Source: a virus (lineage: Duplodnaviria > Heunggongvirae > Uroviricota > Caudoviricetes). From it: DNA of 64,000 bases. Position 1 is the stretch's first letter. The number at the start of each line of letters is the position of its first letter. Below the pieces are notes generated by a model. That model was given only the letters and a program-made list of their open reading frames with translations. It was not told the DNA's origin and ran no database searches. A program made the translations under genes and the position numbers. This document shows, in pieces, positions 39,354 to 59,508 of the stretch. The stretch is taken from IMG/VR virus record IMGVR_UViG_3300042473_000506; one strand, written 5' to 3'.

Positions 39354-39905
39354 ATGAGATGTTTCTATAAATTAAAAATTAATAATCTAGAATCTATACA
39401 GGCACACGCATTATCTAAAATATCTGAAGAAGATCTTAATTTGATGCCAACTAGATTATTTTATCCAGAATATAATTTTTTAGATGATCAAGATCTCTTA
39501 TGTGCGTTAAATCAATACGGGTTGACAAATTATATACATAATGTTGCTCTTTTTGTTCTCAATTCAGGAGGCATAAGCCCTATTCATGTCGACGGGGATA
39601 ATGACTATAATTGGAGTTTAAATATACCTTTAAAAAATTGCAGATATACTCGAACTAATTTTTATCAATCTAATGAGGTTCCTGTTAAGAAAAAAAGTCC
39701 AAACAGTGATATAGAATACAGTATCTTTGATCCAAACTCTTGCACACTACTAGATTCTCTTCGATTATCTGATCCATTTTTAATGAATGTGTCAGTTCCT
39801 CACAGCATATCTAATCTTACTTTTACAACAAGAGTTTCTATATGTATAAGAATAAAATCTACATTTGACATAGAAGCCGCTCTGTCAGAATGGGATTTAA
39901 AATAA
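39354..39905 (+). CDS. small 2OG/Fe(II)-oxygenase-like (DSBH) protein, island paralogue 1
   Basis: 'SPIHVDGDNDYNWSLNIPLKNC' (HxD, NxPL) ... 'VSVPHSISN' ... 'RVSICIR' (distal His + Arg). Confidence 0.5.
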   Translation: MRCFYKLKINNLESIQAHALSKISEEDLNLMPTRLFYPEYNFLDDQDLLCALNQYGLTNYIHNVALFVLNSGGISPIHVDGDNDYNWSLNIPLKNCRYTRTNFYQSNEVPVKKKSPNSDIEYSIFDPNSCTLLDSLRLSDPFLMNVSVPHSISNLTFTTRVSICIRIKSTFDIEAALSEWDLK

Positions 39906-39912
39906 CGAATTT

Positions 39913-40452
39913 CTACATAATAAATTTTTCAAATCTACTTAATGCATCCTGCCATTTGAAATATTTCGAATTGTGTAATGATACTTTTATACTAACACAC
40001 CATCGAGGTGACGTTATATTTGATACGTTATGAGGAACACCGCTTTGAAATAAACACGCCCCTTGTAAGTTTACGGATTCGATTAACTGCATTTTATCAA
40101 TTTCGTAGTCTCTTTTCCAAGCTACACCATTGTGTTTCGGTAGTCCTGGATACTTATTAATTGATCTGTACCAGTTAACTAGACTATCATTTGCATTTAT
40201 ATAAAAATTTAAATTTGTTTGATCGTAAACGTTATAGTTGTCTATATGAATCGGGGAAGACGTGCTTTCCCCACTATAATAAATTATTAGGCCGTTTAGT
40301 CGAAAATCATCAATTTTCTTTAACAGTTCTAGCATATCTGGACTTAATATTTCTGTTATATGAGCAGTACCTAATTTCCATTGTTTTTCGCATACAAAAG
40401 ATTCGCTAAGAAACGGTACAGGAAATGACAGTTTTTTAAAATAATCGCTCAT
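39913..40452 (-). CDS. 2OG/Fe(II)-oxygenase-like protein, paralogue 2
   Basis: 'SPIHIDNYN...' ... 'SGVPHNVSN' ... 'RWCVSIK'. Confidence 0.5.
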   Translation of the reverse strand: MSDYFKKLSFPVPFLSESFVCEKQWKLGTAHITEILSPDMLELLKKIDDFRLNGLIIYYSGESTSSPIHIDNYNVYDQTNLNFYINANDSLVNWYRSINKYPGLPKHNGVAWKRDYEIDKMQLIESVNLQGACLFQSGVPHNVSNITSPRWCVSIKVSLHNSKYFKWQDALSRFEKFIM

Positions 40453-40515
40453 TCAAATATTTACCACCTAATTATTAATCGAGCTTTCTAGGAGTAATAA
40501 GAGCAGATAAATATT

Positions 40516-41082
40516 TTGATGAAATATTATAAAAAAATAGAAATTGAAAACTTAGAGGTAATACAGAAAAAAGTTTTACAATTTATTAAATTTAAACACC
40601 CCACTATATATTTTAGAAAAGTTGAGTCATCTTGGAACCATCTCGATGTTCCGAGTTTGTTGGCGGCATGCCCAGAACTTTCTGAGTCTTTCGGCAAATT
40701 GAATTTATCCTGCATTTTTGCGTCAATTCATATAATGTATGATAATACACATTCTGCTATACATACTGATATTACGCCCTGGAAAGCTAGAATTAACATT
40801 CCTATTTTAAATTGCAACGGAACATTTACTAAATTTTATACAGGTGAAAAGGTAGTAGAAGAAATTAGGACCATGGCAAATAATAAAACGTTTAAGGTAG
40901 ATGCAATTATAAATCCACTTGAATGTATTGAAGTAGACGCATACGAATTAACACAGCCGTTAATTCTTAAAACTTATATACCACATAGGGTTTTTATGAA
41001 TGAAACTTCGAGACCTAGAATAGCATTGTCAATTGGCTGCGATCCTGATCCATTCTATCAATATTTTTCGTCAGACGAATAA
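40516..41082 (+). CDS. 2OG/Fe(II)-oxygenase-like protein, paralogue 3
   Basis: 'SAIHTDITPWKARINIPILNC' ... 'TYIPHRVFMN' ... 'RIALSIG'. Confidence 0.5.
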   Translation: MMKYYKKIEIENLEVIQKKVLQFIKFKHPTIYFRKVESSWNHLDVPSLLAACPELSESFGKLNLSCIFASIHIMYDNTHSAIHTDITPWKARINIPILNCNGTFTKFYTGEKVVEEIRTMANNKTFKVDAIINPLECIEVDAYELTQPLILKTYIPHRVFMNETSRPRIALSIGCDPDPFYQYFSSDE

Positions 41083-41649
41083 ATCTGTAGTATCCACTAC
41101 ATCTTCAATATTTCTAAATTTAATAGGATGTAGTCCCCATCGCACGGTAAACATTATCCTTATATCATCATTAAAATTTTTAACACCATGCATGACATCA
41201 CCTTTAACAAAACAAGGCTTTGTTATCTCAAGGTCTTCGATAATTTCTAATTTAGAATTGTCTATAGGAGTTAGACCATGCAGGTAACTGCTTTGTACGG
41301 CACCCATGACTAGATTTTCTTTTGGACAATGATACCATAACATTTTTGTATTATGACAATTTAATACAGGAATATTTAATCCAAACGGTACTGTAATGAA
41401 TGAACTATCAACATGAGGAGCTAGCTCAGCATGCCCCGGTGTAAAATAAAACCTAAGTAATCGAATTTGACTTTTACTCCTCGACTTTAGCCACCTCATT
41501 AATTTTGGACAATGTTCAGTCATATGCTCTTCACTGAACGTACATGCATGTAGGCCTTTAGATGCATAATCATAATTAATAGATTTAATTAATTCGTGTT
41601 GAATCTCTTCAAAGTTGGGGATATGGATGTATCTATAAAGTTCTTGCAT
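41071..41649 (-). CDS. 2OG/Fe(II)-oxygenase-like protein, paralogue 4
   Basis: 'LAPHVDSSFITVPFGLNIPVLNC' ... 'GDVMHGVKN' ... 'RIMFTVR'; 3' ends of paralogues 3 and 4 overlap convergently by 12 nt. Confidence 0.5.
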   Translation of the reverse strand: MQELYRYIHIPNFEEIQHELIKSINYDYASKGLHACTFSEEHMTEHCPKLMRWLKSRSKSQIRLLRFYFTPGHAELAPHVDSSFITVPFGLNIPVLNCHNTKMLWYHCPKENLVMGAVQSSYLHGLTPIDNSKLEIIEDLEITKPCFVKGDVMHGVKNFNDDIRIMFTVRWGLHPIKFRNIEDVVDTTDLFV

Positions 41650-41694
41650 ACTTCCAAATATTTAGTAATAAATACTTTACAAACTTTAAAAATT

Positions 41695-42315
41695 ATGCTA
41701 CCTTCTATAACATTAAACCCTGATGATTATTATTATGCACTTAATCAGCCCTGTACAATCTTACCTCAACTATTAGAATATGTTCAAAGTGTAGAAGACT
41801 GGGAGGGATTAGATTGGCATACATTTTATTTAGATGTACCAAATAGGACTGCTTGTAATTTCGAATCAGATCCTGTAATTAAATTTTTTCTAGATCAGGG
41901 ATGGAGGTTAAACTTCACATGTATGCCCCCTAAGGGGCATTATCGATGGCATATCGATAATCAAGGAAATAGACAAACCGCAATAAATTTAGCACTAAAT
42001 GGTTTTGAAACAACTAAAGTTATGTGGCGACCAAATAGACCGTACGTGCGAAAAATGAATACAGAAATTATGGATATTCCCTACACACCTGGTACGTATT
42101 TTGTATTTAATACACAAGAGGAACATTGTGTAACTAATTTCAGTAATGAAAATAGATATCTATTAAGCATTACACCAGATAAAAGATTTGCTGTTCCTGA
42201 GTATTTTGACGGAATTTATAAAAATGTAAGTCCTAGTCGATACGCTGAAATTCTAAAAGGTTACAAGCTAGCATTTAAAGAGGTCGTTAGCGAAGTTAAA
42301 GCACAAGGTTGGTAG
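41695..42315 (+). CDS. 2OG/Fe(II)-oxygenase-like protein, paralogue 5 (start moved to internal Met)
   Basis: 'YRWHIDNQGNRQTAINLALNG' ... 'QEEHCVTN' ... 'RYLLSIT'; the listed ORF start (41596) overlaps paralogue 4 on the other strand. Confidence 0.45.
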   Translation: MLPSITLNPDDYYYALNQPCTILPQLLEYVQSVEDWEGLDWHTFYLDVPNRTACNFESDPVIKFFLDQGWRLNFTCMPPKGHYRWHIDNQGNRQTAINLALNGFETTKVMWRPNRPYVRKMNTEIMDIPYTPGTYFVFNTQEEHCVTNFSNENRYLLSITPDKRFAVPEYFDGIYKNVSPSRYAEILKGYKLAFKEVVSEVKAQGW

Positions 42316-42327
42316 TAGATTTTAAAT

Positions 42328-42936
42328 TCAGTCTTTCCATCTAATAGTATTCCAATCAAACATAAAATTTAAGTTAAGTTGTTCGTACGCTATCCATTGT
42401 TTAGTGTACTGAATATTAAGAGGAAAATCAATTACATTAAAATTATTATAAAATAGATGATGTAATTGTCTAGGTGATCGAGTTTCACCTAATCTTTTTC
42501 TTTTAAATGTTTCTATCAAATTTTTATTATAGTCATTAAATGTGATAGCAATAGCTTTACAATTATTGTCTATTGCCCATTGTTTGTGCATTGGTAAAAA
42601 AAGTTCTCTAGGTAATCCTAAATGTCGGTAATCTTTTGTAACCCATGTTCTACATCCGCCTATGGCAACTTCATTGGAGAATTCACTTCTATAAACTCCC
42701 GAACAGGCTACAATAGTTTCATTTTTTATCGCTAAGTGAAACGCTCCACTGGTTTCAAAATATCGATGCCTGTTGTATATTTGATGTATTAGTGTGTTAG
42801 ATTTAGTATGCCAATCTTCTACCCACATATTGCTGTGTGCTAGCTGAGTAATTTCTTCTGATGCCTCTTGACAAAATTTAAAAAATAAACTTTTATCCTC
42901 TAACTCGTCATACCGAATAAGTGTTAGATCAGACAT
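42328..42936 (-). CDS. hypothetical protein (possible acyltransferase fold)
   Basis: ORF between paralogues; no secure motif. Confidence 0.3.
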   Translation of the reverse strand: MSDLTLIRYDELEDKSLFFKFCQEASEEITQLAHSNMWVEDWHTKSNTLIHQIYNRHRYFETSGAFHLAIKNETIVACSGVYRSEFSNEVAIGGCRTWVTKDYRHLGLPRELFLPMHKQWAIDNNCKAIAITFNDYNKNLIETFKRKRLGETRSPRQLHHLFYNNFNVIDFPLNIQYTKQWIAYEQLNLNFMFDWNTIRWKD

Positions 42937-43477
42937 TGCTAACTAAATCTTCAAAATTTGGATTACCGTGAAATCTCATAGTAAATACCCACCGATCTTC
43001 GAGTTGATTTGATTGTGCTGAATGCGGACAATCTACTCTTAATAGATGAGGGCTGTCAATTTCTAATTTAAAATCTTCTGTATATGGTTCTTGCCACATA
43101 ATTTCATGATAAACGTTGTTGGATAACATTACAAGAGATGTGCTGTATTTTCCTTTATACCAAATTTGGTAACTGTTTTTACAACCTTTCAACGGAATGT
43201 TTATTGCAGATTTTATAATACCTTCTTCATTACCGTCTATATGAATACCTTGAAAACTATTCTTTGGTCTAATATAACTTAGACAATAGCGAACAGGAGG
43301 TATATTATACCTAGCTAGGTCTGCATCAATTATATGCTTTAATTGATTGTTGAGCTCGTGTCTTATTTGTATTTGTCTATCTACAGGAATTGAAGTATCT
43401 ATCTTTTTCTCTATATCTAAAATTGCAAATTCTTTTATAAGATGTTCGCATGTTAAATGAATTTTTTTACAGTACAC
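42929..43477 (-). CDS. 2OG/Fe(II)-oxygenase-like protein, paralogue 6
   Basis: 'QGIHIDGNEEGIIKSAINIPLKGC' ... 'VDCPHSAQSN' ... 'RWVFTMR'. Confidence 0.5.
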   Translation of the reverse strand: MYCKKIHLTCEHLIKEFAILDIEKKIDTSIPVDRQIQIRHELNNQLKHIIDADLARYNIPPVRYCLSYIRPKNSFQGIHIDGNEEGIIKSAINIPLKGCKNSYQIWYKGKYSTSLVMLSNNVYHEIMWQEPYTEDFKLEIDSPHLLRVDCPHSAQSNQLEDRWVFTMRFHGNPNFEDLVSNV

Positions 43478-43542
43478 GATGTTTATCGTAAAATTTTGGA
43501 ATATCTTTTATTTAACTCTCTGCAATTTTGTAATATAAATAT

Positions 43543-44169
43543 ATGAAACATATTATGATAGTAGCCACACCACTTAACCTTCCTACTGTAGTCCCTGACG
43601 ATTGGTCTGTATTTTGGAATATTTGGAACAATTATGGAAAACCTATAGTTAAAACGCAACAAAACCATAAGGGATCTTATTCAAAAATTGGAGATACAGA
43701 TGTCTGGAAAGGTTTAGATATCTATAAAAATAATTTATTTCGATCTGCATGGACTGCACCTTACTATGATATTCGAGAAGAACTTCCCTTAATGTATCAA
43801 ATGATTACAAAAATTCCTCTATTCTCTCTTGTCACTGGTGTTAGGGTTGTAGAAAGCCTAGGAAATATTCCGCCACACACTGATGATAATATAGATCGAT
43901 GGAACGTTAGAGCAATGTTGCATTATACTGATTCGAACCCTCAATGGTTTTTTACTAAACCGAATGATACAAAAACTGCTGTGTTGTTAACATTGCCAGA
44001 GTCCACTAATTGGTTTGCATATAACGATAAGTACACATGGCATGGGTCGAAGTATAACCCGGATCACCCTAAATTATTAATTCAAATGTTTGGAGTAGGA
44101 TTTAAGAACAGTCAGTTCCTACAAAAAAGTGCAGAAATGTACAAAGAATATACAATATCATATGACTAA
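43543..44169 (+). CDS. 2OG/Fe(II)-oxygenase-like protein, paralogue 7 (divergent)
   Basis: 'IPPHTDDNIDRWNVRAMLHY' ... 'KYTWHGSKYN'. Confidence 0.4.
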   Translation: MKHIMIVATPLNLPTVVPDDWSVFWNIWNNYGKPIVKTQQNHKGSYSKIGDTDVWKGLDIYKNNLFRSAWTAPYYDIREELPLMYQMITKIPLFSLVTGVRVVESLGNIPPHTDDNIDRWNVRAMLHYTDSNPQWFFTKPNDTKTAVLLTLPESTNWFAYNDKYTWHGSKYNPDHPKLLIQMFGVGFKNSQFLQKSAEMYKEYTISYD

Positions 44170-44950
44170 TTTATTTCAAGCTAGTTCAACTACTGTTAGG
44201 TATTCTCATATTGTAGCAAGGTTAGCAATTATTATAGGTGCATTCTTTGTAACATTTAATTTACCCTTATTACTTGTGTCTGCTATTGCATATCATGTTT
44301 TACTATCTATCGGTATAAGCATAATGATGCATAGATACTTCAGCCATAAAAGTTTTGAATTTAAAAATAATATTGTCAGAAAAGTTTTTATTATAATTTC
44401 ATTGCTTTCGTTGCGAGGAAGTCCAATAGCTTGGGCATACATCCATCGAGCACATCACGAACACGTAGATACCGAAGATGATCCGCATACTCCTGTTGGT
44501 AGAAAATTTAACTTTTTTGGATTACTTGACAACAAAAATAAAGCTGATGATATTCAGATATTTAAAATTAGATCTATGATGACCAAGGAGCACCTATTTA
44601 TTAATCAATACTATTGGTTGATCTTAGCATGTTTGTTAGTACCTTTTGCATTTATTAATTTTACATTATTTTATTATACATGGCTAGTTCCTGTAGTTCT
44701 TGTACAATTTTCTATTAATTTACAAAACTATTTAGGACATATGTCAGGTATAGGTGCGTATAGGACTTACACTAATCCATCTAGCGGCAATAGTCAAAAT
44801 AGTTTGTTATTGTGGCCTTTATATTTAGGTGAAGCGTGGCATAACAACCACCATGCACATGCTCGACATTATCACTACGGAACTGAAATAAGTGGAAAGT
44901 GGTGGGAGATCGATCCCGGTGCAATGCTCATTAAGTTACTGAAAAAATGA
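44162..44950 (+). CDS. integral-membrane di-iron fatty-acid desaturase / hydroxylase-like enzyme
   Basis: Three histidine boxes 'HRYFSH', 'HRAHHEH', 'WHNNHHAH' separated by hydrophobic spans. Confidence 0.6.
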   Translation: MTNLFQASSTTVRYSHIVARLAIIIGAFFVTFNLPLLLVSAIAYHVLLSIGISIMMHRYFSHKSFEFKNNIVRKVFIIISLLSLRGSPIAWAYIHRAHHEHVDTEDDPHTPVGRKFNFFGLLDNKNKADDIQIFKIRSMMTKEHLFINQYYWLILACLLVPFAFINFTLFYYTWLVPVVLVQFSINLQNYLGHMSGIGAYRTYTNPSSGNSQNSLLLWPLYLGEAWHNNHHAHARHYHYGTEISGKWWEIDPGAMLIKLLKK

Positions 44951-45507
44951 TACGATTTTTAACAATGGATGACTTGCCGGATTGCATGAAAATTGCACCA
45001 TTAAAAAATAGAACCGGTGGCACTGTTCCATTAACACTCGAAGGATTTTTAGGTGCCTTTGAAAAATATTTCCAGGATGATGAATTTTGCCGTGTGATTG
45101 GATACTTTGAAAATAATGAACTTGTTAGTTTTGTATGTATCAGAATGTTCGAAACTACGATGAGAGGAAAATTTTGGGTTATTTCGGGATTATATACTAA
45201 GAATTTTAAAAGTTATTTTAGCTTTAACCATTCAGGAATAGGCGAATTAATTAAATTTGCATTCGATTATGCTGAATCACGAGGTTGGTATGAATATTAT
45301 TATTGCACTGCCGAACGTGTAATAAATGTATATGAAAGACAATGGAAACGATCACACTCTCATAGATACGAACATATATTGTTAGACGTTGTTCCACCTA
45401 ATACAAAACCATTTTATGAATTGCACTGGAGACTAATGGGGCAAGAAGTTAAACCTGTCCCAATGATTGTTAAAAAGCGAGCGTTAAAACAAGAATTTAG
45501 AAAATAA
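44947..45507 (+). CDS. hypothetical protein (GNAT-like acyltransferase fold possible)
   Basis: 186-aa ORF; beta-alpha pattern only. Confidence 0.3.
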   Translation: MIRFLTMDDLPDCMKIAPLKNRTGGTVPLTLEGFLGAFEKYFQDDEFCRVIGYFENNELVSFVCIRMFETTMRGKFWVISGLYTKNFKSYFSFNHSGIGELIKFAFDYAESRGWYEYYYCTAERVINVYERQWKRSHSHRYEHILLDVVPPNTKPFYELHWRLMGQEVKPVPMIVKKRALKQEFRK

Positions 45508-45553
45508 AAATCAGTTATTTTATCCTATAAATATAATGCTCATAGGAAACTAA

Positions 45554-46330
45554 ATGAACACAGCATTTTTATCTAGCAGCACTAGGGGTGCTCAACTATT
45601 CTTGATATTAAATTTAATAGGTACTTTCGGTGCTGTCTGGTTGTACGGATTAAATTTTAATTCTTTTATGATGGTACTAGTGGGATACTTTTTATATGGT
45701 TGTTTAGGTATCGTCGTAACTTATCACAGAAATCTTTCTCACAATAGTTATAGAACACATCCGATCATTGTAAAGATATTTTCATTATTAGGATGCTTTG
45801 CAGGGACCGGCAGTCCACTTGCATGGGTGGCCATTCATATCAATCATCACTTAAAGAGTGACAAGCCTACTGATCCGCATAGTCCGTTATACAAAGGGGT
45901 AAAGATCTTTATGATGGATTATATAAATGAAGTTGATAAAGATACAAAATGGAGAATGAGGGCATTAGTCACTGACAGATTCCAGCAATTCCTACATAGA
46001 TATTATTTTGCAATCATTGCAACCTATAGCCTTGTACTATTTTTAATAGGAGGATTTTGGTTGATGGTATTTTTTCATTGGGCGCCTGCTGCAATGACCG
46101 CCCTTATGAGTAATGTTGTTAATTATGTGGGACACAAACCAAGTTGGTGGGGTGGATATAGAACACACAATCTAAATGATCAAAGTACAAATAATTGGCT
46201 ATGGGCTATTCCTAGTTGGGGGGAAGCGTGGCACAACAATCATCATAGATATCCTAGGAATTTTAGTTTTGGAAACAAGTGGTGGGAGATTGATATTTCG
46301 GCACTTGTAATTAGATTGATTAAAATTTAA
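45554..46330 (+). CDS. integral-membrane di-iron desaturase / hydroxylase-like enzyme, second paralogue
   Basis: Histidine boxes 'HRNLSH', 'HINHHLKSD', 'WHNNHHRYP'; same C-terminal 'KWWEID' as 44162..44950. Confidence 0.6.
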   Translation: MNTAFLSSSTRGAQLFLILNLIGTFGAVWLYGLNFNSFMMVLVGYFLYGCLGIVVTYHRNLSHNSYRTHPIIVKIFSLLGCFAGTGSPLAWVAIHINHHLKSDKPTDPHSPLYKGVKIFMMDYINEVDKDTKWRMRALVTDRFQQFLHRYYFAIIATYSLVLFLIGGFWLMVFFHWAPAAMTALMSNVVNYVGHKPSWWGGYRTHNLNDQSTNNWLWAIPSWGEAWHNNHHRYPRNFSFGNKWWEIDISALVIRLIKI

Positions 46331-49263: not shown

Positions 49264-49281
49264 GATATATAAATATTCTTT

Positions 49282-51377: not shown

Positions 51378-51426
51378 TTATCTAGGTAGAGTTAAATTAA
51401 CATTTTTACAAAATTAGAACTAACAA

Positions 51427-52347
51427 ATGGAAAGACATAATCAATGGATGAGCTACAGTTTTGATGCTATAGAATATGGCAAAAAAACTGATTCAAATTC
51501 TATTTTTAAAATTCATTTTAATAAAAAAATAGATAAAAATCTCCCTTCTTATAGAGATGCATTATTTAATAATGCCCGTATTATGCGAGACTCGTATAAT
51601 GAACCATTTGATGTAATGTTGTCAGGCGGAGTTGATAGCGAAATGGTTGTGCGAACATTTCATGCTGTGGGAATTAAACACAATACATTTATTTTTAGAT
51701 TAGAAAATGATTATAACATTCGAGATGTTAATTATGCCATAGCTGTTTGTAAAGAACTAAACATTAATTATAAAATAATAGATTTTAATTTACAAAAATT
51801 CTTCGAAAATGATGCACTTGATTTATTTCAAAAGACACTAATTCCAAGATCAGGAAGAATAGTGAGACTTGCGTGGTTTAACTATCTTGATAATATTCCA
51901 GTTTTTTGTGACGGTGAACCCTACTGGCGCAGGGATGCAAATAAAGATTTTAGTAAAAAATCTACGTGGAGATTAATTTTAAACGAAGACGGATACTCGT
52001 GTTCTACCTATGCTAAATCAATTGGTAGAGTAGCGATTGGGGATTGGTATGAATATACCCCCGAATTGTTATTGTCATACAACGAATTGCCGTTAGTTAA
52101 AAAATTACTCAACGACGAAATCTCAGGGAAGATTAGTTCCTGGAGTAGCAGGTCTGCTATTCACAGAGATATCTGGCCTACTGTACAGGATAAAATAAAA
52201 TTAGCAGGATACGAAGGTGCAGACGGCAATCCTGTATTGAGTCGTCCGGATTTTATGAATCACTTTCAGGTAACGTATATGAATCAAGTGTCCAATACTC
52301 ATTACGAATATACTGAAGAAGAACTAAGAAATTTAATCCTTAATTAG
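51427..52347 (+). CDS. asparagine-synthetase-like PP-loop amidotransferase domain protein
   Basis: 'FDVMLSGGVDSEMVVRTF' followed by 'FCDGEPYW' (compare AsnB 'SGEGSDEVFGGY'); paralogue of 55967..56896. Confidence 0.5.
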   Translation: MERHNQWMSYSFDAIEYGKKTDSNSIFKIHFNKKIDKNLPSYRDALFNNARIMRDSYNEPFDVMLSGGVDSEMVVRTFHAVGIKHNTFIFRLENDYNIRDVNYAIAVCKELNINYKIIDFNLQKFFENDALDLFQKTLIPRSGRIVRLAWFNYLDNIPVFCDGEPYWRRDANKDFSKKSTWRLILNEDGYSCSTYAKSIGRVAIGDWYEYTPELLLSYNELPLVKKLLNDEISGKISSWSSRSAIHRDIWPTVQDKIKLAGYEGADGNPVLSRPDFMNHFQVTYMNQVSNTHYEYTEEELRNLILN

Positions 52348-53172
52348 ATTTTCTCGGACCCAACGTCCCCAATGTATACAATGATACTCGTATTTTGATA
52401 GTGATTCGGTAACAGGAAAGAATTTTGTTTTTATCTTTTCGATCGCAGCAACATCTTCCCTAAACACAGTTTCTAATGTTTCAAATTCGATACGATCATT
52501 ATGTGGAACATCAGGGGCATAATAGAATTGTGTAATCCATTCGAATTTCCATTCTATATTTTTATCTGCAGGAACAATAGTGTTTACTGACAGGCATCCT
52601 TTCTTATGCTCGACAAAGGTGTAGGGGTATATATAGAGTGACCACCAACCTGGAGAATGTTCTTGGAATATCCATCCATCTCCTTGATCCATAACAACAT
52701 TATCTAAATCAATTTGTTCAGAGAGTCTCGGATGAATTCCATCCTTTTGTACATGTAAATAATCTGCTTCAGCATCCATGAGCCATAACCAGCTTCCCTC
52801 GCTTTTACCTTGAAGAGAATGACTATATTCTAGCGTTGTTTCTTTTTCCAGATCATCGACCCATTGATGGTCTGGTTCGATAAAATCTTTAAATACTAAC
52901 CCTGATCGACCAACAGTTGCAGTCCCACAATTTAATTTTTTAGAATTATTAATTGGTGTGCCATTTGCATCCCATTGAAATCCGTGGAACTTACATGTAA
53001 TGCTGTTGATATGTGTTCCTGGATCAGCTAGTGGATACATTCTGTGGGGACAAAATCTGTGAAATAAATTTACTATATTACCTTGTTTATTTAGAATATA
53101 TTCAGAAACTGCAAAGTTCTTGTCCTGCAATGCACTGAGATGAGCAAAAATTTTAGGAGATTTAATAAACAT
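52333..53172 (-). CDS. Rieske [2Fe-2S] non-heme-iron oxygenase
   Basis: 'CPHRMYPLADPGTHINSITCKFHGFQW' = CxH-x16-CxxH Rieske motif. Confidence 0.6.
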   Translation of the reverse strand: MFIKSPKIFAHLSALQDKNFAVSEYILNKQGNIVNLFHRFCPHRMYPLADPGTHINSITCKFHGFQWDANGTPINNSKKLNCGTATVGRSGLVFKDFIEPDHQWVDDLEKETTLEYSHSLQGKSEGSWLWLMDAEADYLHVQKDGIHPRLSEQIDLDNVVMDQGDGWIFQEHSPGWWSLYIYPYTFVEHKKGCLSVNTIVPADKNIEWKFEWITQFYYAPDVPHNDRIEFETLETVFREDVAAIEKIKTKFFPVTESLSKYEYHCIHWGRWVRENLIKD

Positions 53173-53204
53173 TGTAAGAGTAATGTGCGTATATAAATAG
53201 TTGT

Positions 53205-53792
53205 ATGTATGCTATTTACTTAAACGACATAGAAAGATTTATTGCGATTGAAAAAGATCTTTGGATTGCACATGCATCGGCAAAATTGCTATCTTCAAAA
53301 TTATCTATCTCTATATGTGATATCGGAAATGCATTGTCTGTAACTAACTATAACTGTTTTCAATGGACATTGTCAAGTGTAGACTTGCCCGCCTCTACAC
53401 AATATCCAAAATTAGTTGTACCAAAAGATTCTAAATTAGAATTTGTCGGTGATCCTATTAATACAGATATGGAAATGTTAAAATTGCATCAGCAATTTTG
53501 TTTGTTAGTATTAAAGGTTGTTTTTGCGGCAAAAATGACCGACATTGAATTAAATTCAGGAGATCGAAAATATTTTCAATCTTTACTTAAAAACGACACT
53601 TTACTATCTGCGTCGGACGAGTCCGGAATTCCTGGAGGGTTTTTACATACAATAGAAAGAATTCTTTATTTGAGTTCAAATGTAACGCACGTTATGTCTC
53701 ATATTGAATTAATGTTTAATAATTCAGAGAGTATATTTCCTAGAAATCTTGCACAATATAAATTACTATTTTACAAATACTTAAATGCATAA
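53205..53792 (+). CDS. hypothetical protein
   Basis: ORF. Confidence 0.3.
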   Translation: MYAIYLNDIERFIAIEKDLWIAHASAKLLSSKLSISICDIGNALSVTNYNCFQWTLSSVDLPASTQYPKLVVPKDSKLEFVGDPINTDMEMLKLHQQFCLLVLKVVFAAKMTDIELNSGDRKYFQSLLKNDTLLSASDESGIPGGFLHTIERILYLSSNVTHVMSHIELMFNNSESIFPRNLAQYKLLFYKYLNA

Positions 53793-55077
53793 ATTTTATT
53801 ACAAAACCTTTGATCCAAACCTTAGAAGTTTTTCTAAATTGCTCAGTAACAATGTAACTGATTTACCACCAGGCGGCAGATTCTATTTTAATCTTGCAAG
53901 ATCAATGCGTATGAGCGGTGAGAATTACCTATTTAGAGATGGGGAGTGGAGTGATCCTTTTAAAACTGTGGTCCACCCTACCTTTGCTATGCCATCATAT
54001 ACGTCAAATTTTAATTTAAATTTTTCAGAAGTATCGGACTTAAGGTCTCTCGATATTAAAAAAATCATCAACGATACTGATCGGTCGATAGTAATTCAAT
54101 GGTCTGGAGGAATTGACAGTACTGTAGCACTTGTATCTTTATTAAAAAATCTGTCACATTCTGAATTGTCAAATGTAATTATTGCAATGAGTAGCGACAG
54201 CCTTTTAGAAAATCCTAATTTTTATAATAAGTTTATTAAAGATAAATTCAAAATTATTGATTCTGAAAATATGTTGTTTAACGATTATAAAGAAAAATAC
54301 AATGCATATTGCATCATGGGAGACACAGGCGATTGTCTATTTGGTTCAGAATTAGGAAATAAATTATACCCTAAGATGAAATTTATACAAGATAACACTG
54401 GTCATCTTTATAACAAAATTAGTTCACCTGATGTACATTATTCAATCTATAGGGATATCATTGTACAGTATTTTAATGATAATCTTCAAACTTCAATACT
54501 TTCTTTAAAACAACAAGGTGTAGTTAACAGTAGTATTAGCGAATTTATTTCAGGGGACGAAACGTTTGGAGAACTATTCTACGAAAAAATTGTTAAGAAT
54601 ATAGAAACATGCAGTGTTCCTATATACAGTCTACATGACTTTTTCTGGTGGACAATCTTTAGTGGAAGATATATATTCTGTGCCCTAAGAGGACCTAGTG
54701 TGTTTAGCATCGGCGCCAATAAAGAGGCATTAATTAATGATTGTCTTATTCAATGGTTTAATACCGACGAATATCAACTATGGTCTATGAATAATAATAA
54801 CAATGGGGAAAAGTTATCTGGGCCTATACAAGGCCTTGGAAAAACTGCTGCAAAAAAATACATTTACGATTTTGATAAAAACGAATGGTATTTTACGCAT
54901 AAGATGAAAGTCGTGTCGTCACCAAATATTCTTAGAAGAAACTGGCGTAAACATTTTGCAGATTTTGATCCTATGCTAGGTGTTGATACAAATTACAATT
55001 TGATTAAAATAGGACCAGCGACAGTTAACAATTATGTCATTAATAGACTAATGAACTACAAAATAGATTGGTGTTAA
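53785..55077 (+). CDS. PP-loop ATP pyrophosphatase
   Basis: 'VIQWSGGIDSTVALVSLL' SGGxDS motif. Confidence 0.5.
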   Translation: MHKFYYKTFDPNLRSFSKLLSNNVTDLPPGGRFYFNLARSMRMSGENYLFRDGEWSDPFKTVVHPTFAMPSYTSNFNLNFSEVSDLRSLDIKKIINDTDRSIVIQWSGGIDSTVALVSLLKNLSHSELSNVIIAMSSDSLLENPNFYNKFIKDKFKIIDSENMLFNDYKEKYNAYCIMGDTGDCLFGSELGNKLYPKMKFIQDNTGHLYNKISSPDVHYSIYRDIIVQYFNDNLQTSILSLKQQGVVNSSISEFISGDETFGELFYEKIVKNIETCSVPIYSLHDFFWWTIFSGRYIFCALRGPSVFSIGANKEALINDCLIQWFNTDEYQLWSMNNNNNGEKLSGPIQGLGKTAAKKYIYDFDKNEWYFTHKMKVVSSPNILRRNWRKHFADFDPMLGVDTNYNLIKIGPATVNNYVINRLMNYKIDWC

Positions 55078-55970
55078 TTTTGAGTTATTTCTTTCTTATA
55101 TCGTTCTCTGAAAGACTTTAATAAAGAAATACTTGAATGGTAATGCAATTTTGAATCTTGATTATAAAAGACAGGACTTATAAAGTCTCCTAATCCAAAC
55201 AACTTATTCTTGCCTAAATTCATTGTAGCTTGATGAAATATAGCGGATATATTTTCTTTAGTTTCTTTGGGCATTTCTTTTGATGCCATAGTGAAATGAA
55301 AGATATATGGAGCTGTAATTTTTTGCTCAGTTAACGTTTTAATATTTGGGAGATCTGGGTGTCGTTCTGTGCAACTCATTCCGATTATTTGTAAGTTAGG
55401 ATTCTTTGCCTTGTACTGATTAAATGCAGATACACGCTCAACAATAAAGTTAATACTATTATTGTCAGAAGCCATGTGGAGCAGTGCATCTGCATTGCTT
55501 CGATACACAATATAGCGAACAGGTATATTATATTTTTTTCCTAGTTCTAGACCTAGTAGATGAGTAGCACCACCTATAGCAGGGCCGCCTATGGTAAGTT
55601 CTTTAGGAAGCTCATTTTCTTTAAAGTTAGTAATAATTGCCCAGCAGGCACTTCCGTGACTAAACACTGGTTCTAATTTATTTAGGTCAATTAGTCCTCT
55701 ACTTTCAGCTTCGACTACACTATTGGTAATAGTCACAACACGATTTTTTGGTTGTTCTAATGCCTCTCGAACACCTATACTTTCAAAGCCACCAGCTTTA
55801 AATTCTGTAACAAATTTATATTTGTTTTGTATTTTATTTGCTTCATCTAACACAGCGAATATTTGAGGAGTCATACTTTGCGTAGGTCCTTGAGCATTTA
55901 TTACTACAATAGTTTCTTGTGCCTGTGCTAGATTTAAAAATAACAATAAACTTACAATTATAAACTTCAT
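55074..55970 (-). CDS. secreted periplasmic-binding-like protein
   Basis: Signal peptide 'MKFIIVSLLLFLNLAQAQE'; size and layout like 48355..49263. Confidence 0.4.
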   Translation of the reverse strand: MKFIIVSLLLFLNLAQAQETIVVINAQGPTQSMTPQIFAVLDEANKIQNKYKFVTEFKAGGFESIGVREALEQPKNRVVTITNSVVEAESRGLIDLNKLEPVFSHGSACWAIITNFKENELPKELTIGGPAIGGATHLLGLELGKKYNIPVRYIVYRSNADALLHMASDNNSINFIVERVSAFNQYKAKNPNLQIIGMSCTERHPDLPNIKTLTEQKITAPYIFHFTMASKEMPKETKENISAIFHQATMNLGKNKLFGLGDFISPVFYNQDSKLHYHSSISLLKSFRERYKKEITQN

Positions 55971-56896
55971 GGGATTCCTTTAAATTTTTTGTTTACTTCT
56001 TCAAGTGAATACGTAAAACTAAGATTGGTTAAGTCTGACATTTGATTTTCCATATAAAAATCTTTAAAAAATTTAGGAAGACTTTCTAAAGGTGTTCCAG
56101 TCGGACCTTCGTAACCAATTAATTTTGATTTATTTTTTATGTCTGGCCATATCTGTTGATGTAAAGATATTCTACTAGAGAGGGTGCTTTTTTTGCCTAC
56201 ATTTTTATCATCTAGCAAATCTTTTATAAGATCATTTTGATGGTAACTCATTGTAATGTAGGGAGTGTATAGGTACCATTCTCCTATAATCTCTCTATTA
56301 TGATGGTGTGATGTTAACGACATAAAAAGCTGGCGCTCAGTAAGATACAGAGACCAATTAGATTTTTTTGTATAATCACTGAGCAAGTCTCGTTTCCAAT
56401 AAGGAGATCCTTCACCAAAAACAGGTATGTTATCTAAATAATCTAACCATTTAATTTTTGATAAGGACGGACTATGCGGCACTAACGTTTTTTCAAATAT
56501 GTCTTTAGCATCGTGTTCATAAAATTTAGATAAGTTAAAATCAATAATTTTATAAGGTATATTTAATGTTTCACATATCTGTATTGAAGAATTAATATCT
56601 CGAATATTTAAATTATCTTCGTACCTAAAAATAAATGTATTATGTGTTATACCTAAATCTTTAAAAGTGCGAACTATCACTTCGCTATCTATGCCACCGG
56701 ATAATAAAACATCAAACGGCTCTGAAAAAGAATCTCGCATAATACTTGCATTTTGTATCAATGCATCATGATACGACATTGGCATAATGTCGTTAGAGAT
56801 ATTAAAATGAATGTCCAGGAAAGATCTTCTAGAAGATTTAGGAGAATTTAAAATTCCGTCAAAAGAATACGTCATCCAATCTCTAAATCTTCTCAT
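55967..56896 (-). CDS. asparagine-synthetase-like PP-loop amidotransferase domain protein (paralogue)
   Basis: 'FDVLLSGGIDSEVIVRTF', 'FGEGSPYW'; ~50% identical over long stretches to 51427..52347. Confidence 0.5.
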   Translation of the reverse strand: MRRFRDWMTYSFDGILNSPKSSRRSFLDIHFNISNDIMPMSYHDALIQNASIMRDSFSEPFDVLLSGGIDSEVIVRTFKDLGITHNTFIFRYEDNLNIRDINSSIQICETLNIPYKIIDFNLSKFYEHDAKDIFEKTLVPHSPSLSKIKWLDYLDNIPVFGEGSPYWKRDLLSDYTKKSNWSLYLTERQLFMSLTSHHHNREIIGEWYLYTPYITMSYHQNDLIKDLLDDKNVGKKSTLSSRISLHQQIWPDIKNKSKLIGYEGPTGTPLESLPKFFKDFYMENQMSDLTNLSFTYSLEEVNKKFKGIP

Positions 56897-56902
56897 AGAA
56901 AA

Positions 56903-57235
56903 TTAAAGTTCTTCTTTTTCTACCGGGTCAGAATAAATGCCTACAGAAGTGTTATATGCATCGAGAGCGGCAGTTCTTTCAATCGTTACACTACGACTTG
57001 CATAGTCCTCGTAGAGTTCTTTACTTTCCCATATGAATTCTACTTCTAATGTCAGCTCGTCCGGTTCGGATAACGTTCTGATTTTTCTCCCATGAAACTC
57101 TCCGAACATCATTTCTAACATTCGGGTATTTAAATCTTCATCTAAGTTTAGATTAAAATACCATTCTATCGTTTCATTCGGTCTATGAAATCTGCTTAAA
57201 ACTCTATATGCCATGCTAATTCTCCAGTGATACAA
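56903..57235 (-). CDS. hypothetical protein
   Basis: ORF. Confidence 0.3.
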   Translation of the reverse strand: MYHWRISMAYRVLSRFHRPNETIEWYFNLNLDEDLNTRMLEMMFGEFHGRKIRTLSEPDELTLEVEFIWESKELYEDYASRSVTIERTAALDAYNTSVGIYSDPVEKEEL

Positions 57236-58674: not shown

Positions 58675-58749
<75 letters not shown>

Positions 58750-58890: not shown

Positions 58891-58954
58891 GTCTACTCCT
58901 TTAGTTAACAGGTTCTCATTTTATGTGCTACCACTACACCAACACCGCTGACCA

Positions 58955-59501: not shown

Positions 59502-59508
59502 ATTTAAA

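Follow-up and report, generated by a model that had tools for sequence, protein, structure and literature searches.

A conserved guild of oxidising, amide-forming and radical enzymes in an AT-rich island of an uncultured jumbo phage, with a tentatively predicted envelope-lipid substrate

Among the enzymes that tailor ornithine lipids, OlsC and OlsD are 2OG oxygenases of the LpxO family and OlsE hydroxylates fatty acyl chains as a di-iron enzyme; the carboxylate of the head group can also be amidated in an ATP-dependent reaction for which the gene is unknown (PMC12971839). The 18-kb AT-rich island examined in this work is carried by an uncultured jumbo phage of ~375 kb, and was analysed within a stretch of 64,000 nucleotides (hereafter the window). 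Its genes belong to a guild of iron/oxygen-dependent oxidising, amide-forming, acyl/acetyl-transferase and radical enzymes that has never been studied before. We place at roughly 85% the probability that the region from 39.35 to 57.2 kb, together with a radical SAM gene at 62.06-63.57 kb, is the local version of a conserved, shuffled and copy-number-variable guild that is both functional and coupled, and we are just as confident that its carriers include many large uncultured phages as well as some bacterial genomes, both alphaproteobacterial and of the predatory, Bdellovibrio-like type.

Borders and composition of the island

A prior sequence-only reading of this DNA had described an AT-richer block in which gene orientation switches from uniformly minus to mixed, and both observations were borne out when composition and strand were examined. 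GC content is 0.416 over positions 1-39353, falls at ~39.0 kb to 0.324 over 39354-57235, and is 0.402 over 57236-64000; the drop at the left edge is sharp (from 0.435 to 0.345 between 38.8 and 39.0 kb), and the right edge is graded, with GC climbing back over 57.3-58.2 kb. Genes in the island have a mean GC3 of 0.247, against 0.353 for those outside (Mann-Whitney p = 5e-7), and their GC1 and GC2 are lower as well. Upstream, ORFs of at least 150 aa all lie on the minus strand, save one antisense overlap; within the island the strands are mixed, with four convergent overlaps (41071-41082, 48355-48358, 52333-52347 and 55074-55077). In 33 of 37 related loci the AT content of the module genes exceeds that of their flanks, and a search for flanking repeats, an integrase or another mobility signature of the island found none. 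As such, "accessory island" is a fair label, and a recent foreign insertion is unproven.

Enzymes of the island

Nearly every enzyme class named from the sequence passes profile or structure tests. Of the eight small HxD...H...R paralogues proposed there, seven demonstrably constitute a single family of 2OG/Fe(II)-oxygenase-like proteins (cupinS), recovered by iterative HMM with these residues conserved: 39354..39905 (plus), 39913..40452 (minus), 40516..41082 (plus, the member that was modelled), 41071..41649 (minus), 41596..42315 (plus), 42929..43477 (minus) and 49282..49848 (plus). The fifth is more divergent, joining at HMM iteration 2-3 and matching Pfam 2OG-FeII_Oxy_3 at E 5e-4, under the cut-off; its real start is probably near 41623, and it has 230 aa in the JGI gene call. 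The seventh, also divergent, enters at iteration 2 (E 1e-4, then 1e-12) and is start-stop coupled to the radical SAM gene that follows. Over the catalytic residues the cupinS profile can be aligned with a PF05118-type family, and cupinS has beta-hydroxylases and AspH among its structural neighbours. A conserved protein, f43543 (43543..44169, plus; invariant H112, D114 and H167), is possibly a further cupin, its similarity to cupinS being marginal (hhalign E 0.013); in 15 of 23 loci its neighbour is a desaturase gene. No support was found for 57298 as a family member.

Both of the membrane di-iron desaturase/hydroxylase-like enzymes proposed earlier hold up. Desaturase A (44129..44950, plus), of the acyl-CoA/acyl-lipid desaturase type, scores 48.9 bits against Pfam FA_desaturase and has three TM-like segments; desaturase B (45554..46330, plus) scores 60.1 bits and is 32% identical to A. 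Alignment with SCD1 keeps all His boxes in the two proteins, each of which has TM segments, and B matches SCD1 (4ymk) at E 2e-11 with HRxxSH, HxxHH and HNxHH aligned. No guild gene is more conserved than that for desaturase B, which shares 64-80% identity with its orthologues (dN/dS = 0.10). The proposed flavoenzyme and Rieske oxygenase were likewise recovered, the former as an NMO/FabK-like FMN oxidoreductase (46330..47202, plus; Pfam NMO 53.3 bits; PDB FabK structures at E 2e-5) that adjoins PPloopB in 7 of 12 loci, and the latter as a Rieske [2Fe-2S] oxygenase-like protein (52333..53172, minus; Pfam Rieske 32.4 bits; dN/dS = 0.08) convergent with PPloopA-1.

The SGGxDS motif is present in all four predicted PP-loop ATP pyrophosphatases, two of which are AsnB-like by structure, as had been suggested: PPloopA-1 (51427..52347, plus), a stand-alone AsnB-type synthetase domain, and its paralogue PPloopA-2 (55967..56896, minus; 50% identity, blastp E 5e-108). 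PPloopB (47192..48358, plus; SGGADS) matches PPloopA at hhalign E 3e-7, confined to the PP-loop region, had no relatives in the PDB by sequence, and adjoins TctC on the same strand in 15 of 28 loci. PPloopC (53785..55077, plus; SGGIDS) weakly matches TilS, GMP synthase and DndC via the PP-loop only, and a homologue with 36% identity to it lies on an alphaproteobacterial contig of 257 kb. The conserved protein f53205 (53205..53792, plus) is always upstream of PPloopC, the two occurring together in L002, L018 and the cellular contig L092.

Two GNAT-like proteins were also upheld. The GNAT-fold acyl/acetyl-transferase at 42328..42936 (minus) scores 22.2 bits against Pfam Acetyltransf_1 (cut-off 20.7) and belongs to a family that numbers at least 405 members, PF00583 being present in many of them; the family profile of the second, f44947 (44947..45507, plus), matches the PDB N-acetyltransferase 4lua at E 1.2e-5. 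The latter adjoins PPloopA on the same strand in 15 of 28 loci, likewise a desaturase in 15 of 28, and is fused to PPloopA in P0293. Of the two signal-peptide TctC-like proteins claimed, both have hydrophobic, signal-like N-termini, and the TctC/Bug-type periplasmic solute-binding protein at 48355..49263 (minus) is a strong match (83.5 bits), but the divergent one at 55074..55970 (minus) is weak (E 6e-5, 23 bits, under the cut-off). A ~100-aa protein (56903..57235, minus; no Pfam match) represents a guild-accompanying family with 62 copies in 49 loci, often two to three per locus, adjoining PPloopB, PPloopA or MMACHC-like genes.

The two putative B12-binding (class-B) radical SAM enzymes share the motif CIFKCKFC (CxxxCxxC) and are 29% identical. 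Matches to NCBIfam B12-binding radical SAM families reach over the N-terminal domain in both, with a weak Pfam B12-binding match. rSAM-1 (49845..51377, plus; Pfam Radical_SAM 44.8 bits) aligns with TIGR04072 over residues 21-355, finds its best NCBIfam match, far under cut-off, in a "lipid biosynthesis B12-binding/radical SAM" family, and has relatives on 305 viral contigs; rSAM-2 (62063..63565, minus) aligns with the PhpK family over residues 27-373 (90 bits).

Spread and coupling of the guild

Curated resources bear out the absence of any known phage product: PHROGs returned essentially nothing, neither the DNA nor the radical SAM and PP-loop proteins had a match among 50,697 deposited phage records, and the guild is absent from deposited phage genomes. 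Such an island is not confined to one phage, however: the guild recurs, with shuffled gene order, in hundreds of metagenomic contigs of uncultured viruses, and cellular counterparts without any phage context lie on genome contigs of Bdellovibrio-like bacteria and of alphaproteobacteria. Among 84 rSAM-anchored loci (tblastn and clustering, window included), 27 hold a desaturase, 26 PPloopA, 21 PPloopB and 19 a GNAT. Anchoring on PPloopA (n = 74) gives the desaturase as commonest partner (47), followed by cupinS (37), the f44947 GNAT (34), PPloopB (32), the 42328 GNAT (30), B12-rSAM (29), AspHydrox (27), PPloopC (25), TctC (22), and Rieske and FA-hydroxylase-like proteins (19 each). Counting same-strand neighbours in 86 dereplicated loci, PPloopA and the Rieske gene are adjacent in 19 of 21, and the FA-hydroxylase-like family lies directly beside PPloopA in 14 of 17 viral loci; a Bdellovibrio-type contig that also bears PPloopA has an FA_hydroxylase match of 98.6 bits (L087:17239-18183). 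PPloopA is fused to three GNAT subtypes, at either terminus, genes within guild operons overlap stop-to-start, and dN/dS is 0.08-0.10 (reference L001).

The rival explanation, that the island holds unlinked auxiliary genes, must be set against reciprocal co-occurrence from two independent anchors, kept adjacencies, stop-to-start overlaps, AsnB-type-GNAT fusions and purifying selection (dN/dS ~0.1), which together argue that the genes are functionally coupled in a multi-step tailoring set and are not the usual cargo of a phage, as first proposed. Intact catalytic motifs, confident models and the same dN/dS argue that the members are functional.

Candidate substrates

The target in the infected cell is most likely a lipid-type or amino-acid-type molecule, and among candidate substrates the lipid/envelope or amino-acid type fits best. 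That the guild tailors an envelope lipid or aminolipid is our preferred reading but a tentative prediction, to which we would give well under even odds. During infection, the guild would remodel a membrane-anchored, acyl-chain-bearing host-envelope molecule with amine and carboxylate groups, for which an amino-acid-containing lipid or N-acyl amino acid would fit best and lipid A or another lipid-linked envelope precursor would be less likely. The SCD1-type desaturases, and in related loci FA-hydroxylase-type di-iron enzymes, would act on acyl chains; the soluble 2OG/Fe(II) oxygenases, as kin of the Asp/Asn-hydroxylase (LpxO/OlsC) family, would hydroxylate chain or head group; and the FabK/NMO-like flavoenzyme may tune the redox state of the chain. 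GNAT-fold proteins would N-acylate or N-acetylate an amine, the glutaminase-less AsnB-type PPloopA would adenylate and then amidate a carboxylate (PPloopB and PPloopC probably likewise), the B12-type radical SAM enzymes could methylate unactivated carbons, and the Rieske protein may hydroxylate, demethylate or supply electrons. Conjecturally, the secreted TctC-type proteins would bind, in the periplasm, a carboxylate that serves as precursor or co-substrate, candidate ligands being di- or tricarboxylates such as 2-oxoglutarate or citrate. If true, the phage would profit from a changed envelope, through superinfection exclusion, through effects on membrane fluidity or stability, or through a supply of phosphorus-free lipid.

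A lipid is suggested by the SCD1-like desaturases, the FA-hydroxylase neighbours of PPloopA, the FabK-like flavoenzyme, the PF05118-type alignment and beta-hydroxylase/AspH neighbours of cupinS, the top match of rSAM-1, and ornithine-lipid enzymology (PMC12971839). Against it, no acyl carrier protein, acyl-CoA ligase, PlsC/LpxA-type acyltransferase or OlsB-type (PF13444) match was found in the window, and FA-hydroxylase-like and PF05118-type members are absent from the window itself. We know of no PP-loop enzyme that acts on a lipid. The lipid reading is further weakened because the GNATs look like N-acetyltransferases of small molecules (spermidine acetyltransferase, E 8e-4) and not like known long-chain N-acyl synthases, because cupinS proteins are soluble whereas LpxO is membrane-bound, and because the radical SAM, Rieske and NMO family-level matches all fall far under equivalog cut-offs. 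The guild may instead act on an amino-acid-derived small molecule, or modify a peptide or protein; the SPASM-rSAM, TauD and Amidohydro_2 partners in related loci suit peptide or small-molecule chemistry better than a lipid, and a precursor peptide is, as noted before, absent from the island as far as the tools reach, as are a transglycosylase and a kinase.

A nucleic acid is the remaining rival. A DNA base is without support: neither DpdA nor a transglycosylase, a kinase or any nucleotide enzyme was found. For tRNA there is a weak positional hint, limited to the B12-rSAM: rSAM-2 lies beyond the AT-rich block, flanked by tRNA-Thr and tRNA-Arg genes, within a minus-strand array (58676..64000) in which ARAGORN finds 18 tRNAs in the window, and not the 20 first counted.

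Composition, borders and surroundings of the island

The island at 39354-57235 had been described in the sequence-only reading as AT-richer than the DNA that precedes it and as the place where genes turn from uniformly minus to mixed strands, and computed GC, codon positions, tetranucleotides and ORF strands confirm both statements. By exact computation, the GC content is 0.416 over 1-39353, 0.324 over 39354-57235 and 0.402 over 57236-64000, and 2-kb sliding values run at approximately 0.40-0.47 over most of 1-39 kb, 0.29-0.35 at 39-58 kb and 0.43-0.44 at approximately 58-62 kb, within an array of 18 tRNA genes that ARAGORN places at 58.7-64.0 kb. The left border is sharp (GC falls from 0.435 to 0.345 between 38.8 and 39.0 kb) and the right border is gradual across 57.3-58.2 kb. 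Genes of the island have a GC3 of 0.247 against 0.353 outside it (Mann-Whitney p = 5e-7), with GC1 and GC2 lower as well, and tetranucleotide usage normalised for base composition gives r = 0.49-0.58 between the island and either upstream segment, compared with 0.69 between the upstream segments themselves. Upstream ORFs of at least 150 aa lie on the minus strand throughout, one antisense overlap excepted, whereas strands in the island are mixed, with four short convergent overlaps. A comparable bias accompanies the recurring set of island gene families elsewhere (hereafter the guild): its genes are AT-richer than their neighbours in 33 of 37 related loci, with a mean difference of 0.032 and the greatest difference, -0.086, in the window.

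The phage backbone is that of a large myovirus whose closest cultured relatives are just 28% identical, with rIIA and rIIB at 32.7-35.9 kb. An identical copy of an island protein is found on JGI metagenome contigs of approximately 375-376 kb, and the island lies between the rII-side genes and the tRNA array of this phage of approximately 375 kb, not among the tail-fibre genes. A search of the island borders for flanking repeats or att-like sites gave chance-level matches only, and no integrase, transposase or other recombinase was found in the island with Pfam; as a signature of mobility is absent, we reject the recent insertion of a discrete mobile element, strong as the compositional contrast is. 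An Rfam scan for riboswitches over 38-59 kb, at E up to 1, returned a single kind of match, a tRNA.

Several features of the flanking DNA may be recorded here. The tail-fibre genes at 3040-6006 and 6090-7637 have collagen-like PHROG matches, and over such genes, at 5000-8000, lies a local GC peak of approximately 0.49 that is the maximum of the window. On the minus strand of the upstream backbone, at 9649-12411 and 29840-30862, are a 2OG-FeII_Oxy_5-type oxygenase (10674-11324), a nucleotide-sugar epimerase (11476-12411) and a glycosyltransferase (29840-30862), all accessory genes of envelope or glycan type that stand outside the AT-rich block. Two ORFs on opposite strands overlap almost fully within 36696-37265, at 36696-37232 (minus, 178 aa) and 36726-37265 (plus, 179 aa). 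Two proteins are encoded in the immediate left flank of the island, at 38104-39036 (minus): one is kinase-like (AAA_33, 64 bits) and the other resembles dual-specificity protein phosphatases (DSPc, 32 bits, a little under cut-off). Together they may be a phage-encoded kinase/phosphatase pair, and homologues of this flank are found near the guild in the related locus L006 too. To the right, 57298-58630 (minus) forms a transition zone of GC 0.36-0.42 with two ORFs of approximately 85 aa and a 260-aa ORF bearing an H-N-D motif, the latter with no homologue detected in any fetched related locus.

Enzyme classes encoded in the island

The chemistry of each component is established at the superfamily level, and the enzyme inventory proposed from sequence alone proved essentially right in Pfam, PDB and NCBIfam comparisons; the classes hold, and the counts are corrected to seven rather than eight paralogues of the small 2OG/Fe(II)-oxygenase-like family (cupinS) and, by ARAGORN, to 18 rather than 20 tRNAs. 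Since no NCBIfam score for an island component comes near any curated cut-off, no equivalog assignment is made. By predicted compartment, the two di-iron enzymes are integral to the membrane, many other enzymes are soluble and cytoplasmic, and two proteins carry N-termini that resemble signal sequences.

The cupinS paralogues are the proteins labelled 39354, 39913, 40516, 41071, 41596, 42929 and 49282. The iron ligands H83, D85 and H157 show no variation among 15 sequences and line up across the seven paralogues of the window, and R168, the basic residue approximately 10 positions after the distal His that binds the C5-carboxylate of 2OG, is also invariant. By this facial triad, the basic residue and the double-stranded beta-helix fold, cupinS belongs to the Fe(II)/2-oxoglutarate oxygenase superfamily. 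Its top structural neighbour is a hydroxylase of a nucleoside-antibiotic pathway, and TET, AlkB and JBP are not among the top neighbours. No match to PF05118 was obtained among the window proteins; a family of related loci that does match it (AspHydrox, 29.8 bits, over cut-off) aligns with cupinS at an hhalign E of 9e-5 and a probability of 59%. The proteins at 43543 and 57298 were considered as further members of the cupin family and not accepted (E 0.013 and 0.7, respectively).

Both membrane desaturases have three TM-like segments and Pfam scores of 48.9 and 60.1 bits, and the second aligns with the solved stearoyl-CoA desaturase SCD1 (4ymk) at E 2e-11 with the HRNLSH, HINHH and HNNHH boxes in register. 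On these His boxes and TM segments they are classed as SCD1-type acyl-CoA or acyl-lipid membrane desaturases, their activity being predicted. The NMO/FabK-like protein scores 53.3 bits against Pfam NMO and matches FabK structures at E 2e-5. For the Rieske protein (32.4 bits, ligands CPH...CKFH), PDB and NCBIfam matches are confined to the Rieske domain, residues 25-86, and PDB searches with it, as with the radical SAM proteins, gave generic domain matches only. Against Pfam TctC, the binding proteins score 83.5 bits (48355-49263) and 23 bits, under cut-off (55074-55970). No TctA or TctB membrane component lies alongside, the desaturases being the sole multi-TM ORFs in the island, and the window binding proteins would need host permeases.

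The two putative class-B radical SAM proteins, rSAM-1 (49845-51377, plus) and rSAM-2 (62063-63565, minus), share the motif CIFKCKFC and score 44.8 and 40.8 bits against Pfam Radical_SAM. Their alignments to B12-rSAM models of NCBIfam (TIGR04072, PhpK family) begin at residues 21-27 with scores far under the equivalog cut-offs, and Pfam B12-binding matches the 62063 protein weakly (E 0.0056). Two GNAT families are represented: GNAT-42328, which exceeds the Pfam GNAT cut-off and comprises more than 400 proteins, and the f44947 family, whose profile matches PDB N-acetyltransferases at E 1.2e-5. We considered these GNATs as long-chain N-acyl synthases (FeeM, AHL-synthase or OlsB-like) and rejected the idea, their profiles matching generic or small-molecule N-acetyltransferases only.

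Of the PP-loop proteins, PPloopB (47192-48358) had no match in the PDB by sequence. PPloopA (51427-52347 and 55967-56896) carries SGGxDS and, as modelled, an AsnB-type synthetase-domain fold, by which we assign it as a predicted AsnB-family synthetase; asparagine synthetase, beta-lactam synthetase and carbapenam synthetase are its nearest structures, and sequence identity to AsnB, beta-lactam synthetase, CarA and TsnB9 is 13-15%. The model and alignment span the synthetase domain alone, and PPloopA, at 306 aa, differs from the AsnB family in lacking the N-terminal Ntn glutamine amidotransferase domain with Cys1, so that it must draw its nitrogen from free ammonia, an amine or a partner protein. 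When 1.84 billion representatives were searched exhaustively, 969 PPloopA clusters (50% identity) were obtained at E <=1e-10. A second difference from the AsnB family is frequent fusion, at either terminus, to three different GNAT-fold subtypes, which to our knowledge is not an established AsnB architecture; tandem PPloopA-PPloopA proteins occur too.

Recurrence of the guild and its relation to tRNA arrays

Megablast with the island and with 19 kb upstream of it, and tblastn with rSAM and PPloopA, gave no match in 50,697 deposited phage records, and 20 island proteins gave two marginal matches in PHROGs, both to a family of unknown function, in agreement with the statement of the sequence-only reading that no known phage product is encoded. 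Relatives are present in IMG/VR, with rSAM on 305 viral contigs and PPloopA on 168. When relatives of rSAM were collected by tblastn and all ORFs within 10 kb of it were clustered (84 loci, the window included), the desaturase was found in 27 loci, PPloopA in 26, PPloopB in 21 and GNAT-42328 in 19, cupins and TctC recurring as well; PF05118-type Asp/Asn hydroxylases, a family not in the window, were found in 22. Other recurring families not in the window are QueC-like, MMACHC-like (putative B12-processing) and SPASM-rSAM proteins, SDRs, a small FA-hydroxylase-like membrane protein, a TRAP-type binding protein and further GNATs. With PPloopA as an independent anchor (74 loci), the outcome is alike: the guild comprises the desaturase (47), cupinS (37), f44947-GNAT (34), PPloopB (32), GNAT-42328 (30), B12-rSAM (29), AspHydrox (27), PPloopC (25; 53785-55077 in the window), f43543 (24), TctC (22), Rieske, SPASM-rSAM and FA-hydroxylase-like proteins (19 each), MMACHC-like (16) and NMO (15), with TauD-family oxygenases, NifU-like scaffolds and DUF2061 present too.

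Adjacency was counted in 86 dereplicated loci. PPloopA adjoins Rieske in 19 of 21 loci and the FA-hydroxylase-like gene in 14 of 17; it adjoins f44947 in 15 of 28, always on the same strand, and PPloopB adjoins TctC in 15 of 28, the desaturase f43543 in 15 of 23, and NMO PPloopB in 7 of 12. Orthologues of the window and of the closest locus, L001, show dN/dS of 0.08-0.10. Cellular relatives are known from contigs in MAGs of Bdellovibrio, Bacteriovoracaceae and Oligoflexia, from Bradyrhizobium denitrificans and from two long contigs of Alphaproteobacteria (257 and 362 kb); among their partners are PF05118 hydroxylases, desaturases, FA_hydroxylase (98.6 bits), MMACHC-like, SPASM-rSAM, TRAP-SBP and PPloopC with f53205. 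The island is thus a genuine, selected and functionally coupled guild, and is neither random cargo nor peculiar to this phage.

It might be argued that no single pathway exists, and that a hyperplastic accessory region merely gathers and duplicates independently useful genes, the guild then reflecting a shared hot spot and common expression timing. Gene order is indeed shuffled and copy number highly variable (at least 8 desaturases in L001, 5 PPloopA in L032), strands are mixed, and 25 of the 86 loci have at least three tRNAs within 10 kb, such arrays being typically plastic regions; the hypervariable regions of pelagimyophages likewise carry rSAM cassettes, transport genes and hydroxylases for which no functional linkage is described (PMC7029224). 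However, fusions of PPloopA to GNATs arose several times, the PPloopA-Rieske and FA-hydroxylase-PPloopA adjacencies are near-obligate, cellular contigs without any phage architecture show these combinations too, and the window genes are translationally coupled, and we regard a mere gathering of unlinked genes as decidedly unlikely. The linked tailoring pathway proposed earlier is supported by this co-occurrence, adjacency and fusion; the part of that proposal which admitted a DNA base as the substrate is not, such a substrate being unlikely.

A nucleic-acid target would have the guild hypermodify phage DNA bases or phage tRNAs, with the PP-loop proteins acting as TilS, QueC or thiolases do, rSAM methylating, and the 2OG enzymes oxidising in the manner of TET/JBP or AlkB. 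Proximity gives this idea some appeal, as the island abuts the 18-gene tRNA array and rSAM-2 lies between tRNAs. Of 77 cases of a B12-rSAM, 9 lie no more than 300 bp from a tRNA, and tRNAs enclose such a gene in at least three phage lineages (window 62063-63565, minus; L052:5206-6741; L053:9914-11449; L110:4113-5672), and cupinS is within 2 kb of one in 15 of 94 cases. PP-loop profiles weakly match tRNA thiolases, TilS and QueC, and QueC-like genes occur in some related loci. Against this, most other guild families are almost never near tRNAs (0-3%), PPloopA is closest to AsnB and beta-lactam synthetases and matches the tRNA enzymes by the generic PP-loop core only, the cupinS neighbours noted above do not favour TET, AlkB or JBP, and membrane desaturases and periplasmic binding proteins do not fit. 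Pfam, NCBIfam and PHROG comparisons found no DpdA/Tgt, nucleotide kinase, dNMP hydroxymethylase or other modifying enzyme, and no glycosyltransferase, in the island; because nucleotide-handling enzymes are absent, hypermodification of DNA bases is rejected, and we consider a nucleic-acid target of either kind very improbable. The 62063-type rSAM could act on tRNA or, equally, tRNA arrays could be insertion hot spots, and its proximity to tRNAs does not restore the case for tRNA as the target of the guild in its entirety.

Two kinds of RNA gene were also seen in related loci, namely tmRNA-like genes (ARAGORN, permuted) at L028:19146-19505, L072:11979-12382, L103:14728-15119, L119:3347-3816 and L121:488-973, and tRNAs with the amber-reading CUA anticodon near the guild at L005:13226-13300 and L153:2722-2798. 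Loci L084 and L085, on short contigs binned as 'Nitrososphaerales archaeon CRAIB_MAG96', carry a near-complete phage-type guild (cupins, two desaturases, f43543, GNAT, FA-hydroxylase-like, PPloopA, PPloopB and TctC) plus tRNAs, and are probably mis-binned viral contigs.

Candidate substrates, known systems and accompanying genes

Given that a carboxylate-adenylating, amide-forming enzyme is coupled to GNAT transferases, it is reasonable to postulate that the substrate would bear both carboxylate and amine functions. Membrane acyl chains would likewise be expected of it, since SCD1-type desaturases are dominant and conserved and are accompanied by FA-hydroxylase partners, a FabK-like enzyme and hydroxylases related to LpxO/OlsC. 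Amino-acid-containing lipids would be the class that joins acyl chain, carboxylate and amine. Two ornithine-lipid enzymes, OlsC and OlsD, belong to the 2OG oxygenases of the LpxO family, and a third, OlsE, is a di-iron enzyme that hydroxylates fatty-acyl chains; an ATP-dependent reaction that amidates the carboxylate of the head group (taurine transfer) is also known from biochemistry, no gene having been assigned to it (PMC12971839). An AsnB-type synthetase would be a chemically apt candidate for that head-group amidation. As amino-acid lipids unite the features of the guild and the ornithine-lipid enzymes parallel them, the reading that we favour, at a probability of roughly one in three, is that the guild tailors an envelope lipid or aminolipid.

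Several observations weigh against this assignment. No acyl carrier or long-chain acyltransferase signature was found, the GNATs resemble small-molecule acetyltransferases, and we know of no PP-loop enzyme that acts on a lipid; furthermore, the SPASM-rSAM, TauD and Amidohydro_2 partners in related loci suit peptide or small-molecule chemistry. In a soluble alternative, an imported or cytoplasmic amino-acid or organic-acid precursor would become a capped, oxidised and methylated product, which might serve as a compatible solute or a signal or might resemble an antibiotic or a beta-lactam. PPloopA and GNAT would cap its carboxylate and amine ends, the 2OG, TauD, Rieske and B12-rSAM enzymes would tailor it, and TctC or TRAP proteins would import the precursor. 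The nearest structures of PPloopA, the small-molecule character of its fused and adjacent GNATs, and the nucleoside-antibiotic hydroxylase nearest to cupinS are all in accord with this, and TauD-family, Amidohydro_2 and SDR genes recur in the guild along with TctC and TRAP binding proteins. There are precedents as well: N-acetylglutaminylglutamine amide is made by an AsnB-family amidotransferase and a GNAT-containing enzyme, and in thienamycin clusters a beta-lactam synthetase stands together with three B12-rSAMs, with 2OG oxygenases and with a GNAT. The window, however, has no scaffold-forming enzyme (ATP-grasp, NRPS, crotonase and PLP enzymes were not found), no exporter and no membrane permease to partner the binding proteins, and a soluble product would give no role to the acyl desaturases and FA hydroxylases, integral-membrane enzymes that are the commonest partners and the best conserved. 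We think a soluble product unlikely.

Equally unlikely, in our estimation, is that the guild post-translationally tailors a ribosomal product, be it a RiPP-like peptide, virion or tail-fibre proteins, or host translation factors. Cupins resembling AspH, P4H or lysyl hydroxylases would hydroxylate it, the AsnB-like proteins would form amides or isopeptides (compare lasso cyclases), GNATs would acetylate it, and radical enzymes (B12-rSAM, and SPASM-rSAM in related loci) would methylate its carbons or cross-link it. B12-rSAM and SPASM-rSAM are typical of peptide maturation, with NCBIfam matches to RiPP methyltransferases; a multi-paralogue family of approximately 100 aa could serve as substrate or scaffold; and tail-fibre ORFs (3-7.6 kb) have collagen-like PHROG matches. 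An Asp/Asn beta-hydroxylase is, moreover, reported as core to pelagimyophages (PMC7029224), which we count for a protein target. On the other hand, the conserved small ORFs include no recognisable precursor in which a constant leader is joined to a variable core, the approximately 100-aa family is conserved over its full length, and no RRE/PqqD, leader protease or transporter was found in a search that was not RRE-specific. PPloopA lacks the N-terminal domain of lasso cyclases and AsnB, and peptide maturation offers no place for desaturases, FA hydroxylases, FabK-like or periplasmic binding proteins. The approximately 100-aa family itself (56903-57235, minus) has no Pfam match and is present as 62 copies in 49 loci, often as 2-3 paralogues (three in L137), usually adjoining PPloopB, PPloopA or MMACHC-like genes; members lie, for example, at L006:13595-13897 and 14548-14862, and carrier, chaperone and substrate are its candidate roles.

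Returning to the envelope lipid or aminolipid, one of the closest known systems is the set of ornithine-lipid and lipid A enzymes of Gram-negative bacteria (OlsB, OlsC, OlsD, OlsE and LpxO), which brings LpxO-family Fe(II)/2OG oxygenases, a di-iron fatty-acyl hydroxylase or desaturase and GNAT-clan N-acyltransferases to one amino-acid lipid, as the guild would on this reading. The resemblance is partial: no homologues of OlsB, OlsA or OlsF were detected, in place of a hydroxylase of OlsE type the window encodes desaturases of SCD1 type, and its cupins are small, soluble and, at the hhalign value given, distant from the PF05118 family of LpxO/OlsC. The B12-rSAM, Rieske, FabK-like and TctC proteins have no counterpart in the ornithine-lipid set. 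Thienamycin-type natural-product clusters and RiPP clusters (e.g. proteusin) have a similar inventory of enzyme classes. The guild differs from these in having no scaffold enzyme (CarB/ThnE crotonase) or precursor peptide, no exporter and no resistance gene, in having membrane desaturases and periplasmic binding proteins, and in an unrelated gene order.

Among phages, the hypervariable regions of pelagimyophages hold radical SAM cassettes, transport genes, an Asp/Asn hydroxylase and a stearoyl-CoA desaturase, with no linkage or function proposed (PMC7029224). That account of the pelagimyophage and cyanomyophage regions ('host recognition cluster') lists genes without a recurrent guild, adjacency rules, fusions or cellular counterparts (PMC7029224), and the window island, unlike that cluster, is not among tail-fibre genes. 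Cyanophages also carry a membrane fatty-acid desaturase, presumed to change host membrane unsaturation (PMC5776448). Such desaturases are treated as single genes, in a paper that uses no genomic-context terms (PMC5776448), whereas the window has two paralogues, and relatives up to 8, among PP-loop, GNAT, rSAM and oxygenase partners. Beyond the pelagimyophage trace (PMC7029224), nothing specific on this gene combination in phages was found in the literature. The component superfamilies and phage accessory or auxiliary-metabolism islands as such are known; undescribed are the combination of components, the AsnB-type synthetase that stands alone or is fused to GNATs, and the distribution over phages and predatory bacteria.

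That the island encodes a truly new pathway is possible, if doubtful. Tentatively, and with similar reserve, the guild may be an undescribed system that makes a new class of envelope lipid, for instance an N-acyl amino acid or aminolipid that is desaturated, hydroxylated and C-methylated and whose head group is amidated; within this system the glutaminase-less AsnB-type synthetase plus GNAT would be the long-missing type of enzyme for ATP-dependent head-group amidation; phages would rebuild the host envelope with it, and it would be common to uncultured large aquatic phages and predatory or oligotrophic bacteria. If it is a single pathway, its approximately 23 genes here would place it among the largest multi-enzyme metabolic modules in phages. 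Once known, the guild product would indicate how large aquatic phages chemically re-engineer their hosts and would give functions to several large 'hypothetical' families, including the stand-alone AsnB-type amide synthetase and its GNAT fusions, and the guild may also contain the genes behind orphan lipid modifications, among them the ATP-dependent step that amidates ornithine-lipid head groups. For a large, widespread and uncharacterised enzyme system, the island is a concrete, clonable 18-kb fragment suited to heterologous expression.

Genes of cofactor supply also accompany the guild. The MMACHC-like putative B12-processing protein (a weak Pfam match), present in 16 of the 74 PPloopA-anchored loci, adjoins SPASM-rSAM in 7 of 18, and the guild is also accompanied by an Fe-S scaffold resembling NifU (133.7 bits), examples of such cofactor-gene loci being L035:13591-14142 and L137:4535-4819. 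That these genes travel with the guild suggests that the phages invest in B12 and Fe-S supply for its enzymes.
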